From the UHGV virus genome UHGV-0107614: a DNA stretch of 16,935 nt. One strand, written 5' to 3'. A program made the position numbers. This DNA is from a virus. Position 1 is the stretch's first letter. Every line of letters begins with the position of its first letter. Below, piece by piece: positions 6,001 through 9,000 of the stretch.

Positions 6001-9000
6001 TGGCAGGCGTGGCAGCACAGACACAGATATCAGTTCAGGCGGTGATTGACCAGATAAAAGAAGAGGCGGCGAAGTCTCCCGTCATAGAAGAGCTTCGCAA
6101 GGAAATAAAAAACGCGCAGGGGCAGGCTGTAAAGGATGCTGCAATTAAGACAACCGAAGTTGTGGGGACTCTCAGGGAAGAAACGACAAGAACGATTGGT
6201 GGTATTGAAACCCGCATTAGCACACTGGATTCGTCAACCAGTGAATCGCTTAATGAGGTCGACAAGCGCATCACTAAACTGGATAAAGAAGGCGGTGAGG
6301 CCTTCCTTGCGATGTGGTCAAAAAAAGCGGGAGTTGATGGCATCACTGCGGGGATCGGGATTGTCGCCGGAAAAGACAGTGAAGGCAGGCCTGTAAGTCA
6401 GGTTGCAATTTCTGCGTCGCAGCTGTTTGTCTTTGACCCGAACAACCCGGATAACACCGCCTATCCGTTTGCGGTATCAGGTGGCAAGGTCGTGATCCCG
6501 AAAGCGATGATTTATGACGCGGTGATTGAAACACTGGTGTCGCGGAAGGTTGTGGCAGATGAAGTAAAAGCCGGGGTAAGTATCACTTCGCCAGTTATCC
6601 GGAGTGCCGTTATTCAGAACGGAAACTTTCAGGTTGATTCTCAGGGTAACCTGAATATTGGTGGCCTTTTTAGTGTTACGTCGCAGGGGCAACTGACAAT
6701 TCGTTACTCTAATCAGAATGTTGGGCTGGTGATCCGCAATGATAAAATTGAAGTTTATGACCAGAACGGACGCCTGGCTGTTCGCATAGGCAGGTTAAGC
6801 TGAGCCGGAGGCTGACATTGGCAGAATATGGTTTTGCAATATACAACAGAAACAATGTTAATGTTACGGGCGTGCTTACTCCCATATTTTTCCTGGACAG
6901 GTTTACGGCGGAGTCGGGATCAAAAACGTATACGAATAAACCAGAAGGGAAAACATTGCAGGCAGTCTGTTCATTATTTCCGTGGAATAATGTATTTAAG
7001 GACCGGAAAGTACCGAAGATAACCATTAATGGCAATACGGTGACGTGGTCGAATCTTGAGCAGGGGATGGGGTCATATATTTATACATTCTGGGGGTGAG
7101 TTGTATGTATGGTTTAAGCATTACGAAACCAGATGGCAGCTTGTGGATAAGCCCGGGGTTTACGCCTCAGTGTCTGATCAATAAGGGAACTATTCCGGCG
7201 ACTGAGAAGGCTTTTTTTAAAACATCAATCCCGTCAGGAAAAAGTTGTTTTTTCTTTATCAGAACAGAGAAAAAGGCCGATGTCATGTACACACATGAAC
7301 AGATTGATGGATATCATGCCTTAAGGCTTCATCAAATTGTCAGGGGAACGAATCCTGGTGTTACGACTGTTTATGCTTTTGCGAATATGGTTACTCAACC
7401 TTCTGAGTATGGTATTGCCATGTATAACCCGTCGGGTGAGATGATTTACCATGGCGAAATGATGCTGCTTGACGCGAAATTAATACCAGTTGATATCAAG
7501 TTTGAGAAGGATCTTGGATATCCATGCGCAATTATGCCTGCACTGGTTGGGTATTATAACTGGCAGCGTACACCTTATGACCGACCGATTTACACCACAT
7601 CAACGGGGGCTACAGGAAATAAAATATATTCCTGTGAGCATTATTCCGGTCGTGCAACATGGGATATTCGGAAGCCGTATATAGATAAAGTGTTGGTCAT
7701 TAATTCATCAATGTATGACTGATATGCCTGTCAGTATGAATATTAAGTAATAAAACTAAATTCATCTTAGATAATACGGGGTTATTTTATTATAGGAAAA
7801 GTCTAAAAATGAAACATACCAGAATTATTTTTGCGTGCACAACTTTTGTGATGAGTTTTGTAGCAGCCCCTGCCTGTGCAGCACAAGGTGACAGTACAGT
7901 TTCTTTCGGATACGCTCATCTTCAGCTCTCTGGACTGAACAATTTTGTTAAGGATTTAAGTCTTTATAATCTTGATACTTTTAACCGTTTTACAAACAGA
8001 CACTACTTCAATTCAGGCGAATATGCAGATGCTTCTGTCCGGGGGCATGATGGCAAAGGCAAATCTCCTCAGGGGATGAGCATCAGGTATCGTTATGAGA
8101 TAACGGATGAGATTGGTGTTATAACATCTTTTACATGGGCGCGTTCTATGACTAATGCGCAGGCATTTATTGATATTAACCCAGGAGATGAATCCAGAGA
8201 GGTTAAAAATCCGGCAGCTTCAGCGAGAACTGATATCAGGGCTAATTACTGGAGTCTACTATCCGGTCCTTCGTGGCGGTTTAACGAATACCTCAGTGTG
8301 TATGCAATGGCTGGTATGGGGGGTGCAAAAGTCACCACTGACTTGAAAATTAACGACAATCTTAATCATGGTGCCGGTAGTTTTTCTGAAAGCAAGAGTA
8401 CTAAAAAAACAGCACTTGCATGGGCTGCTGGTGCACAATTTAACCTGAATGAAAGTGTTGCTATGGATGTCGCGTATGAAAGCTCCGGATCCGGTGACTG
8501 GCGCACGAGTGGGGTTATTGTAGGCATTGGCCTGAAATTCTGAGTAATACCCGACAACATGTCATAACCCGCTGTGATAGCGGGTTTTTTGTTGCCCGTG
8601 CAGGGCAAAAATCGTAGATTATGCGCGGGTGCCTTTCGGCTGATGGCTGGAAGGTGAACCTGAAGGCCTGATGTGGAAAGGCCCCGAGTCAACTTTAATG
8701 TTAACCCGAGGCCCTAACCATCATACCTTAAGCAAGTAGAAGGTTAGCGCCTCTCCACTCAGGAGGCAAGCGCTATGTCGCAAAAATCGCTCATCACCGT
8801 CACAATTTGTATGACGGTGATCTTCACCATCTGGATGTTACACGGCTCGTTGTGTGAGTTCCGGCTGAATTTGTGGGGAGCGGAGTTTGCGGCGTTCTTA
8901 CAGTGTAAGCAGTAGGAAAACCGCGACGGGGACGAAAGTCCCCGTCAACTGGTTGCTGAGGTTCAGCCGATATGGCACCCGTTTCTGGTGAGAGAATGGA

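Follow-up and report, generated by a model that had tools for sequence, protein, structure and literature searches.

The region from about 8592 to 8980 of the stretch of viral DNA analysed here (UHGV virus genome UHGV-0107614, 16,935 nt, referred to as the window) very probably represents an intact hok/sok-type module carried by a prophage. As an explanation of the locus as a whole, we consider it likely that this module is self-contained and lacks mok, and that the ribosome-binding site (RBS) of hok is controlled directly. The control mechanism taken by itself, in which both an RNA switch and the antisense RNA Sok act on the hok RBS independently of mok, is derived from RNA folding models, and we give it about an even chance. 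The features of the region are as follows (positions in the window).

7809-8543, plus strand: lom-like gene (Pfam Ail_Lom, 116 bits).
8566..8586, plus strand: intrinsic terminator of the lom-like gene, a 9-bp stem followed by TTTTTTGTT.
8592..8620, plus strand: predicted hok promoter, with -35 TTGCCC (8592-8597), a 17-nt spacer, and -10 TAGATT (8615-8620).
8627..8643, plus strand: tac element at the predicted 5' end of the hok mRNA, GGGUGCCUUUCGGCUGA, pairing with fbi (8963-8980) or with ucb (8676-8685).
8672..8737, minus strand: predicted Sok-like RNA of about 61-66 nt with approximate ends, consisting of a tail ACUUGCUUAAGG..., a 16-bp hairpin, and ...CCUUUCC.
8676..8685, plus strand: ucb box, GAAAGGCCCC, predicted to pair with the mRNA 5' end in the open form and with GAGGC (8708-8712) in the closed form.
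8708..8753, plus strand: predicted Sok-target hairpin, in which GAGGC (8708-8712) and CCUAACC pair with GGUUAG and the dcb box GCCUC (8749-8753).
8741..8769, minus strand: predicted Sok promoter, with -35 TTGCCT (8769 to 8764), a 17-nt spacer, and -10 TAACCT (8746 to 8741).
8761..8766, plus strand: hok Shine-Dalgarno (SD) sequence AGGAGG, maskable by UCUCC (8752-8756), which overlaps dcb.
8775..8915, plus strand: hok, coding for a 46-aa toxin of Hok cluster 72 (WP_000078907.1), with Pfam and PHROG matches.
8925..8946, plus strand: 3' stem-loop of 9 bp with a GAAA loop, following the hok stop codon.
8950..8956, plus strand: 3'-UTR segment, predicted by RNAalifold to pair with the SD-AUG spacer (8766-8772) in the full-length mRNA.
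8963..8980, plus strand: fbi (fold-back inhibition) element, UCAGCCGA..GGCACCC, with complementarity to the 5' end of the mRNA.

A preliminary description of this region had proposed a Hok/Gef-family type I toxin gene, recognized by a 46-codon ORF with an AGGAGG RBS and by a subsequent 9-bp stem with a GAAA tetraloop, and all of this was borne out. The ORF (8775..8915, plus strand) starts with ATG and comprises 46 codons and a TAG stop; the SD sequence (8761-8766) is located 8 nt upstream of the ATG, and the stem is perfect (GACGGGGAC at 8925-8933, GAAA at 8934-8937, GTCCCCGTC at 8938-8946). The encoded peptide, MSQKSLITVTICMTVIFTIWMLHGSLCEFRLNLWGAEFAAFLQCKQ, matches the Pfam family HOK_GEF (PF01848) with 33.2 bits (E 4e-8; gathering score 22), its residues 8-44 being aligned to profile positions 6-42 of 42, and it matches PHROG 251 ("MokW-like host killing") with 85.8 bits (E 2.8e-24). 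At the sequence level, this Hok/Gef family signal is far beyond chance. Upon alignment to R1 Hok, residues C12, T14, L26, C27, E28, and E37 correspond to C16, T18, L30, C31, E32, and E41, which, together with M1, are shared by more than 80% of Hok peptides according to the text of a recent preprint (10.1101/2025.08.07.668861). With about 50 residues, an N-terminal hydrophobic helix, and all of the conserved residues, the peptide has the characteristics of a Hok family member. Assignment to a specific subfamily model is ruled out by scores below the cut-offs, both for HokA (equivalog NF007290, the best NCBIfam match; 38.4 vs. a cut-off of 89) and for the Hok subfamily NF007279 (22.7 vs. 73).

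The hok gene as such is already known, having been catalogued, annotated, and, by report, found toxic. The identical peptide is annotated by RefSeq/PGAP as "Hok/Gef family protein" (WP_000078907.1) and is listed as 72_1589 in Table S2 of the preprint (10.1101/2025.08.07.668861). According to the text of that preprint, 72_1589 is toxic on induction, as it is absent from the three nontoxic constructs among the 45 tested; the toxicity of the window peptide is thus a reported one. The same text states that mok, Sok, and mRNA elements are outside its analysis, and it is these elements of the cluster 72 locus which are added here.

The sequence has 100% identity to a chromosome of E. coli on which PGAP annotates a "Hok/Gef family protein", and the hok locus is a moron which directly follows lom in a 933W/Stx-type (Sepvirinae) prophage. 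It is embedded among late and tail-fibre genes and has the orientation of all its neighbours. An enrichment of hok loci in prophages is already established. The locus was found in 198 phage records, most of them from Stx-converting phages, and the locus or a relative is present in 1750 of 5426 complete E. coli genomes, so that about one third of these genomes carry the branch, with up to 9 copies per genome. Relatives were collected by an exact 17-nt DNA pattern and are only 75-84% identical overall. Diverged copies follow either lom or, in P2-like prophages, ogr, with one further placement near rpmE2, away from any obvious late operon. An identical ORF occurs in 933W and VT2-Sakai, where the original GenBank records leave the gap empty while they do annotate hokW/mokW/sokW.

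As judged from its sequence, the lom terminator (8566..8586) separates the hok unit from transcription coming from upstream. A terminator scan of the window revealed no terminator of the hok unit itself between 8980 and a terminator-like site at 9077-9105; in a P2-type relative, a terminator is present just after fbi (positions 1901-1928 of L004). At the 9077-9105 site, the available relatives are too similar to each other for comparison.

The toxin might alternatively be produced mainly by Q-antiterminated late read-through upon induction and aid lysis and phage release, as has been proposed for hokW-sokW, with the antisense RNA merely silencing leaky expression in the lysogen. The location in the late/tail-fibre region, co-directional with all neighbours, would agree with such a role, as would the lack of a terminator after fbi. 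In addition, upon mitomycin C treatment hokW-sokW of Sp5 helps lysis and raises phage release twofold (PMC8621323), and Sp5 carries the window locus as a second hok. However, the module is also found at the end of P2-like prophages with a terminator of its own, and near rpmE2, which indicates that it is autonomous, and in the window the lom terminator lies immediately upstream. We consider a function predominantly in late lysis to be somewhat unlikely. This alternative, which can be reconciled with the self-contained module that we favour, is about the biological role and leaves the molecular mechanism as it is.

The RNA elements were analysed in the window and among the relatives. With gathering thresholds, Rfam reports no match in the whole window; in a permissive search, RF01794 matches the plus strand at 8627-8786 over its full length (model positions 1-157) with an E-value of 1.1e-7, its 40.7 bits being below the gathering score of 59. 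Because this match is on the hok-sense strand, the model describes the leader of the hok mRNA and not the antisense RNA. The match begins with model position 1 at 8627, which is also the first base of tac. The remaining weak Rfam matches, among them mir-675, Trp_leader, and Hrs1 (E 0.05-8.5), were attributed to chance or to the lom terminator and were rejected.

The 17 nt of tac are invariant in all 61 distinct loci. In the minimum-energy fold of the full-length RNA, 8627-8643 pairs with 8963-8980, and the tac:fbi cells of the 61 loci are paired in 97.9% and 98.6% of the cases compared to 35-57% in slid controls; the changes are one-sided, with GC/GU exchanges on the 3' side only. Homology with diverged loci stops at fbi. 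The alternative partner of tac, ucb, is conserved across the family and is equivalent to AGCCCC (nt 70-75) in R1; the 10 tac:ucb pairs are invariant except for a single C-A cell at one pair. The Sok-target hairpin has 11 pairs, with 90% of the cells paired and one-sided changes only (AU to GU). The ucb, GAGGC, and dcb boxes are present and conserved across the family, and the RNAalifold consensus recovers the open fold, with both tac:ucb and the Sok-target hairpin. In none of the helices tac:ucb, ucb:GAGGC, and GAGGC:dcb do both strands change, so that covariation lends them no support. Further downstream, the pair 8771:8951 between the SD-AUG spacer and the 3' UTR is CG in 49 loci, UG in 8, and UA in 3. 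The 3' hairpin shows compensatory changes at five of its nine pairs, with 99.1% of the cells paired (61 related loci); on this comparative evidence it is a real conserved RNA element. By analogy, it is likely to be the stop point for 3' trimming, which would protect the truncated, active mRNA. Substitutions in the 3' stem-loop of R1 abolish toxicity (PMC9841398).

Promoters were proposed for hok and for Sok from their position, their conservation, and the analogy to R1, both having weak consensus matches. A promoter scan of the window reported neither of them, and because the 8/12 matches of the hok promoter are below the threshold of the scan, this promoter has the status of a prediction. TTGC and TA.ATT are kept in diverged loci, the -10 variants among related loci being TAGATT (36), TAAATT (10), TAGAAT (9), and TACATT (7). 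The -10 of the predicted Sok promoter, TAACCT, is identical in 63/63 aligned loci; its -35 starts with TTG in every aligned locus and with TTGC in most, at a spacing of 17-18 nt. The position of this promoter mirrors that of the R1 Sok promoter, TTGCGC-17-TATCCT (R100 sequence).

A Sok-like antisense gene on the minus strand had been expected between 8600 and 8775, and the predicted promoter (8769 to 8741) and RNA (about 8737 to 8672), which overlap the hok leader, are inside this range. In the 16-bp hairpin of this putative RNA, 8715 to 8700 pairs with 8693 to 8678 (minus strand). The minus-strand fold of this hairpin (-33.4 kcal/mol) is more stable than its plus-strand mirror (-18.1 kcal/mol), and the same order was obtained for 40 of 40 variants; A.C mismatches on the plus strand are G.U pairs on the minus strand. 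At the predicted 3' end, the terminator scan reports no terminator, the hairpin being followed by a short U run only.

In agreement with the preliminary description, we obtained no convincing mok frame. In the window, no ORF starting with ATG, GTG, or TTG reaches the hok SD in any frame. In the frame which trails hok by one base, stop codons occur at 8696, 8702, and 8729, and the first such start codon is at 8807, while hok's own frame has a TAG at 8745 and no start between there and 8775. The GAGG in the Sok-target hairpin, which is the mok SD in R1, is followed by no start codon here. Among the relatives, a canonical-start ORF which crosses the hok start in the mok frame is restricted to about 20 of 64 distinct loci, and its starts differ. 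Three solutions for mok were considered and rejected as conserved features, namely the R1 frame, a mokW-like in-frame extension, and a near-cognate AUC/AUA start after GAGG. Family-wide comparison indicates that the mok-less state characterizes the subfamily in its entirety and does not reflect decay of the window copy. A phrase search for mok-less hok loci returned nothing relevant within the literature searched.

The system could still be a disguised hok/mok/sok in which a leader ORF, starting either at ATG 8671 or at a noncanonical AUC (8720) after GAGG, acts as mok; its translation would unwind the RNA and thereby enable initiation at hok, and Sok would block the leader. The ORF from ATG 8671 is preceded by an SD-like GAAGG (8662-8666) and has 22 codons, with its stop at 8737-8739. 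Both this ATG and the preceding GAAGG are kept in all aligned loci, the ORF falls within the Sok-complementary region, and about one third of the related loci have a long ORF which begins with an ATG at -103 or -130 and, in the frame of R1 mok, continues past the hok start. R1 itself strictly requires that mok be translated as far as the hok SD (PMC9841398). Yet the leader ORFs shift frame due to indels in the loop of the Sok hairpin and end anywhere between -57 and +134 relative to the hok ATG, with neither a conserved protein nor a conserved stop. In the window, the leader ORF terminates 36 nt upstream of the hok ATG, and translation from AUC/AUA (8720-8725), which is not conserved, would reach a TAA after two codons. 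The conserved ATG is part of a sequence on which the tac:ucb stem and the 3' end of Sok already impose constraints. We thus consider a disguised mok to be unlikely.

The preliminary description had also raised the possibility of a degenerate chromosomal hok. A decayed, silent remnant, having lost mok and being left with an untranslatable hok, would persist by prophage hitch-hiking. For such a remnant, one may point to the missing mok, to the missing terminator of the hok unit in the window context, to the chromosomal hok loci of E. coli K-12, which are known to be inactive (PMC1635323), and to a few relatives which are visibly broken (L104, L059, and one with a truncated ORF). Against this, 62 of 65 distinct loci have an intact ORF of 46-48 codons despite many peptide differences, and the noncoding elements are invariant or covarying across loci which are only 75-84% identical, all regulatory RNA elements other than mok being kept across 61 distinct loci. 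The locus belongs to a Stx/933W-type prophage, where it follows lom, and the window, 933W, and VT2-Sakai encode one and the same peptide; the SD matches AGGAGG perfectly, and the identical peptide is described as toxic in the preprint text (10.1101/2025.08.07.668861). The proposed degeneracy was thus not upheld, and decay to a silent remnant is considered very improbable.

For the RNA switch, the evidence comes from nearest-neighbour thermodynamics with forced pairs, using R1/R100 hok and hokW as controls. In the window, whether the RNA is full-length, closed, or Sok-bound, opening of the hok SD costs 8.3 kcal/mol, vs. 3.4 kcal/mol in the open state, and opening of the complete hok RBS costs 17-18.5 vs. 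11.2 kcal/mol. This pattern recurs in 18 of 18 diverse relatives. In R100/R1 hok and hokW, the cost for the hok RBS barely depends on the state (R1: SD 6.6-7.3, RBS 20.7-24.3 kcal/mol), and it is the mok RBS which opens instead, its cost dropping from 20.2 to 10.5 kcal/mol in the former and 19.1 to 7.8 kcal/mol in the latter. As dcb is only 5-8 nt from the hok SD, compared to about 16 nt with a hairpin in between in R1, the predicted switch opens the hok RBS and not a mok RBS. The Sok-target hairpin forms spontaneously once tac:ucb is forced. The open form was obtained by forcing or from RNAalifold; it is absent from the minimum-energy fold of the unconstrained truncated mRNA, where the closed form keeps an advantage of 1.4 kcal/mol. 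In the family alignment, the two sides of the helix between SD and anti-SD are not in register, and 64% of the cells are paired in fixed columns; as fixed columns are unusable for covariation in this case, the SD hairpin was assessed by folding each sequence individually.

According to the mechanism that we propose, a stable hok mRNA would begin near 8627 (plus strand) and code for the 46-aa inner-membrane toxin (8775-8915). The newly made mRNA would be locked, with 8627-8643 paired to fbi (8963-8980), GAGGC (8708-8712) paired to ucb (8680-8685), and the hok SD masked by the adjacent UCUCC (8752-8756). Slow 3' trimming to the hairpin at 8925-8946 would strip fbi, and the 5' end would then be free to pair with ucb, so that GAGGC and dcb (8749-8753) could make the Sok-target hairpin and thereby draw the anti-SD off the hok SD. 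The antisense RNA, which would be short and unstable and transcribed from the minus-strand promoter (8769 to 8741), would pair with 8672-8737 and disrupt the target hairpin, whereby the hok SD would be masked again; the resulting Sok:hok duplex would probably be marked for RNase III. Hok cluster 72, with no conserved mok, appears to gate the RBS of hok directly, unlike R1 and hokW, where an overlapping mok frame mediates the action of Sok and of the switch. Extended to the cluster, this would mean that cluster 72 is a naturally mok-less branch of hok/sok, comprising lom-adjacent loci of the 933W/Sp5 type and ogr-adjacent P2-like loci, in which dcb doubles as the hok anti-SD and in which switch and Sok gate the hok RBS with no leader-peptide coupling. 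We regard this generalization as tentative, with chances slightly short of even.

The mok-less wiring is possibly a modest novelty. The reference Stx2 phages 933W and VT2-Sakai/Sp5 carry the window locus unannotated beside hokW-sokW, and because 933W and Sp5 hold both loci, published phenotypes of hokW-sokW deletions were measured with a second hok present. If our interpretation is correct, both phages have a further hok/sok module which is functional and has so far escaped study, and which could account for the fact that deletion of hokW-sokW has only partial phenotypes. A widespread mok-less branch would then be a natural counter-example to the R1 paradigm, with the same RNA boxes rewired to gate the toxin RBS directly, and would help in the annotation of type I systems, where detection of mok is acknowledged to be hard.

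Among known systems, the closest at the protein level is Hok cluster 72 (Escalera-Maurer et al., 10.1101/2025.08.07.668861), its Table S2 entry 72_1589 having no difference from the window peptide. A type I module from the same phages is hokW-mokW-sokW of 933W and Sakai prophage 5 (Takada et al., 2021, PMC8621323), 933W and VT2-Sakai holding both loci. It shares an mRNA 5' end beginning with GGGUGC and the same ucb/GAGGC/dcb/fbi logic. HokW, however, is a 51-aa member of the HokD cluster (35_712), and over 35 aa it is 37% identical to the window peptide. Its gene is located about 13 kb away near the right end, on the opposite strand, and has an annotated in-frame mokW leader; hokW-sokW also differs in having been characterized by experiment. 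Peptide, cluster (35_712 vs. 72_1589), and genome position rule out that the window locus is hokW-sokW itself.

In E. coli K-12, mok frames accompany the hok loci, with mokB and mokC annotated as genes, and IS elements have inactivated several of these loci. Their toxins HokA to HokE are from the same family as the window peptide; in the preprint text, HokA is assigned to another 60% cluster (93; 10.1101/2025.08.07.668861).

With the hok/mok/sok (parB) system of R1/R100, the window locus has in common a toxin of the Hok family in which the conserved C, T, LCE, and E residues are present, an mRNA 5' end which can pair with the 3' fbi or with ucb, an SD-like GAGGC which together with a downstream GCCUC (dcb) makes the antisense target hairpin, and a 3' stem-loop past the stop codon. 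The predicted antisense gene of the window also resembles that of R1, in that its -35 overlaps the hok SD region and its hairpin is of the type GCCUCG...CGGGGC. The window peptide is only 30% identical to R1 Hok and has 46 instead of 52 aa; the locus has no mok frame and no terminator right after fbi, it is borne by a prophage and not by a plasmid, and its dcb lies 5-8 nt from the hok SD, compared to about 16 nt with an intervening hairpin in R1.

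The hok/sok-type unit of the window and its immediate surroundings comprise the following features, in which tac is the mRNA 5' end, fbi the 3' fold-back inhibition element, and ucb and dcb are leader boxes.

8566-8586 (+): lom terminator, upstream of the hok unit
8592-8620 (+): weak hok promoter (predicted), TTGCCC-17-TAGATT, conserved
8676-8685 (+): ucb box, GAAAGGCCCC, known from R1 and conserved here
8708-8712 (+): SD-like GAGGC, known from R1 and conserved here
8749-8753 (+): dcb box, GCCUC, known from R1 and conserved here
8761-8766 (+): hok SD, AGGAGG, 8 nt 5' of the ATG
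8775-8915 (+): hok ORF, ATG start, 46 codons and TAG, product MSQKSLITVTICMTVIFTIWMLHGSLCEFRLNLWGAEFAAFLQCKQ
8925-8946 (+): 3' hairpin, GACGGGGAC-GAAA-GTCCCCGTC
8769->8741 (-): Sok promoter (predicted), TTGCCT (8769->8764), 17-nt spacer, TAACCT (8746->8741)
~8737 to ~8672 (-): Sok-like RNA (predicted), single-stranded 5' tail and 16-bp hairpin

The ORF, RBS, and hairpin of the preliminary description are all present, and its assignment of the peptide to the Hok family holds: the peptide passes the Pfam model HOK_GEF (33.2 bits, E 4e-8; curated threshold 22) and matches PHROG 251 ("MokW-like host killing", moron category; 85.8 bits). It scores well under the cut-offs of both the HokA and the Hok subfamily models of NCBIfam. 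It shares 30% identity with R1 Hok and, in that alignment, retains all residues which are conserved in >80% of Hok peptides according to a recent survey.

The exact peptide is listed as 72_1589 in Table S2 of a catalogue sorting 32,532 hok loci into 61 clusters (Escalera-Maurer et al., 10.1101/2025.08.07.668861), with an SD of GGAGG and assignment to a "high-abundance" cluster (cluster 72). It was cloned for toxicity assays under arabinose induction. Toxicity was found for 42 of 45 constructs, and 72_1589 is not among the three non-toxic ones named in the text. The gene thus already has an annotation and a catalogue entry and has reportedly been tested, and the finding is known at the protein level. 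The authors left mok, Sok, and the mRNA elements unanalysed, stating that finding mok "is not trivial".

In database comparison, the region matched the E. coli UCPROB-002 chromosome at 100% identity; RefSeq names the ORF there WP_000078907.1 ("Hok/Gef family protein"). In this chromosome, the gene stands between that of an Ail/Lom outer-membrane protein and those of hypothetical phage proteins, with tail-fibre genes farther upstream and a giant LPD38-domain protein farther downstream. In addition, 198 phage records, mostly Stx-converting Sepvirinae, carry the 461 bp at 90-98% identity. Together, these matches identify the window as part of a 933W-type prophage with the hok locus directly 3' of lom.

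In phage 933W, the 429 bp between lom (44,693-45,427) and L0129 (45,857-46,258) are devoid of annotation and hold the identical 46-aa ORF (45,660-45,800). The same ORF, likewise unannotated, is found in VT2-Sakai (Sp5) between lom and orf66 (44,701-44,841). Window positions 8627-8985 correspond to AF125520.1 45,511-45,870 and AP000363.1 44,552-44,910 (loci L132 and L133). The gene had been described as missed by the ORF track; this applies to such older GenBank records, which leave the gap blank, while current RefSeq annotates it. The characterised hok of the Sp5/933W prophage codes for a HokD-like peptide of 51 aa (Takada et al., 2021, PMC8621323); in 933W, this hokW is encoded at 58,460-58,734 with annotated in-frame mokW and sokW. 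We rejected an equivalence of the window locus with hokW-sokW, given the different position in 933W and a different peptide (37% identity over 35 residues). The reference Stx2 phages 933W and VT2-Sakai/Sp5 thus each carry two hok loci, and published hokW-sokW deletion work left the second one in place.

By sensitive DNA search, 1750 of 5426 complete E. coli genomes carry this locus or a diverged copy of it, at up to nine places per genome; nearly all of these places are chromosomal. Homology to copies with 75-84% identity spans window positions 8607-8980, which defines the unit. Copies occur in three settings: (i) 3' of lom in Stx-type prophages, (ii) 3' of ogr at the end of P2-like prophages, adjoining serS, ihfA, tRNA genes or flk, and (iii) near rpmE2 in O157. 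Scanning IMG/VR for exact matches to the invariant 5' 17-mer yielded >80 loci representing 65 distinct units, 62 of which retain a hok of 46-48 codons despite many differing peptide positions. Some viral contigs carry tandem cluster 72 hok pairs, 455-720 bp apart and of differing peptide subtypes (L083, 4318/5040; L100, 5545/6000). One locus is broken, with unrelated sequence replacing the hok 3' end and 3' UTR (L104, 7300-7661; peptide tail ...AAFLLNRPGNPGD); in another (L059, near 4502) the 5' leader is present and the hok ORF is missing.

Rfam model RF01794 ("sok") matches over its full length at 8627-8786 (+), with 40.7 bits (E 1.1e-7), which is under the gathering score of 59. Its consensus opens with GGGUGCUUGAG, as does the hokW mRNA, and closes with SD and AUG, which indicates that this model, though named "sok antitoxin", represents the hok mRNA leader rather than the antisense RNA. 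Users of RF01794 should thus take the matched strand as the hok-coding one. The match begins at the model start and places the hok mRNA 5' end at ~8627.

The 5' 17 nt of this mRNA are invariant across 61 distinct loci and pair with UCAGCCGA..GGCACCC (8963-8980) in the minimum-energy fold of 8627-8980. Family-wide, 98% of the tac:fbi cells are paired, compared to 35-57% in slid controls, and the variable 3' side shows only G-C/G-U or A-U/G-U changes. This 5'/3' pairing is the tac/fbi fold-back lock of the hok family. The RNAalifold consensus of 61 sequences is an "open" leader. It combines pairing of the 5' end to ucb, an inner hairpin showing covariation, the GAGGC...GCCUC target hairpin, and a long-range helix joining the SD-AUG spacer (8766-8772) to 8950-8956.

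The 3' hairpin shows compensatory changes in five of its nine pairs. On the minus strand (8924-8947), this conserved hairpin scores as an intrinsic terminator with tail CGGTTTTCCT; the A-run just before it (8917-8920, +) is conserved. It may also stop incoming antisense transcription, a convergent host gene (e.g., serS) being located downstream in P2-type loci. P2-type relatives (after ogr) have a canonical terminator ~24 nt past fbi (1901-1928 in locus L004). In the window, homology stops at fbi, and the next terminator-like site, hairpin GCCTGCCTTAAAAAGCAGGC followed by ATTTTGCTTT (9077-9105, +; mirrored on the minus strand), is within the following gene. The hok primary transcript might end there in this setting; the relatives are too alike to discriminate. 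The lom-adjacent type lost everything 3' of fbi, which suggests that the module was inserted or recombined exactly there. The annotation starts the next ORF (8972-9373) at ATG 8972. Because its PHROG 610 alignment begins only at residue 9 (MDDTIL...), ATG 8996, with GGTGAGAGA upstream, is probably the true start, in which case fbi is intergenic and does not overlap a start codon.

The predicted minus-strand promoter corresponds in relative position to the R1 Sok promoter, and its -10 box TAACCT is identical in 63 of 63 loci. The predicted Sok fold has -33.4 kcal/mol compared to -18.1 for its plus-strand mirror. Of the two strands, the minus strand folds more stably in 40 of 40 sequence variants because A.C mismatches on the plus strand correspond to G.U pairs on the minus strand. 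Only a short U run follows the hairpin. The predicted Sok-like RNA is well supported by conservation.

A convincing mok frame had been reported as absent, and we confirm this for the window: in none of the frames does an ORF from ATG, GTG or TTG extend to the hok SD. Stops at 8696, 8702, and 8729 interrupt the R1 mok frame, and the frame of hok itself, which is used by mokW, has a TAG at 8745. An AUC/AUA start after GAGG was rejected, as TAA comes next and the codons are not conserved. A mok-frame ORF crosses the hok start in only ~20 of 64 distinct loci, with differing starts (-130, -103, -100, -46); the others have a stop 16-79 nt upstream of hok and no start codon thereafter. Two leader ATGs (8643-8645 and 8671-8673, the second preceded by GAAGG) are conserved in nearly all relatives. 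The ORFs which they open vary in frame and length by locus, with indels in the Sok hairpin loop; in about one-third of the loci, one of them extends in the R1 mok frame across the start of hok. Given these scattered ORFs and shifting frames, mok is not a conserved feature of cluster 72. The interpretation as a "degenerate chromosomal hok" is thus not upheld: this is a prophage locus, and mok absence is cluster-wide rather than the decay of a single copy.

For a set of defined states, we computed the ensemble free energy needed to open the hok SD (8759-8768) or RBS (8757-8790).

Opening costs of hok SD and RBS in the window (kcal/mol)
Full-length RNA: SD 8.3, RBS 17.3
Truncated, closed (ucb:GAGGC): SD 8.3, RBS 18.5
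Truncated, Sok-complementary region blocked: SD 8.3, RBS 17.2
Truncated, open (tac:ucb and target hairpin): SD 3.4, RBS 11.2

The open and closed forms of the truncated RNA are almost isoenergetic, and the same pattern of opening costs is seen in 18 of 18 diverse relatives. The structural basis is simple: the dcb/UCUCC element of cluster 72 is only 5-8 nt from the hok SD and can mask it when not bound by GAGGC. Based on this thermodynamic modelling, we propose that 3' processing and Sok would directly gate the RBS of hok; a role of a short leader ORF in hok control is a live alternative. Lying in the late region with no terminator behind fbi, the gene could be expressed by read-through of late transcripts. 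Plausible roles are help with lysis and release on induction (cf. hokW-sokW), prophage retention, and exclusion of other phages. We consider worth noting the apparently mok-less wiring of the widespread cluster 72 and the second hok locus of 933W and Sp5, which is unannotated and unstudied. Unlike in the window, the SD/RBS cost of hok hardly moves between the truncated states in the mok-containing systems R100/R1 and hokW. In these controls the mok RBS opens instead, with its cost dropping from 20.2 to 10.5 kcal/mol in R100/R1 and from 19.1 to 7.8 kcal/mol in hokW, which agrees with the requirement for mok in R1 (PMC9841398).
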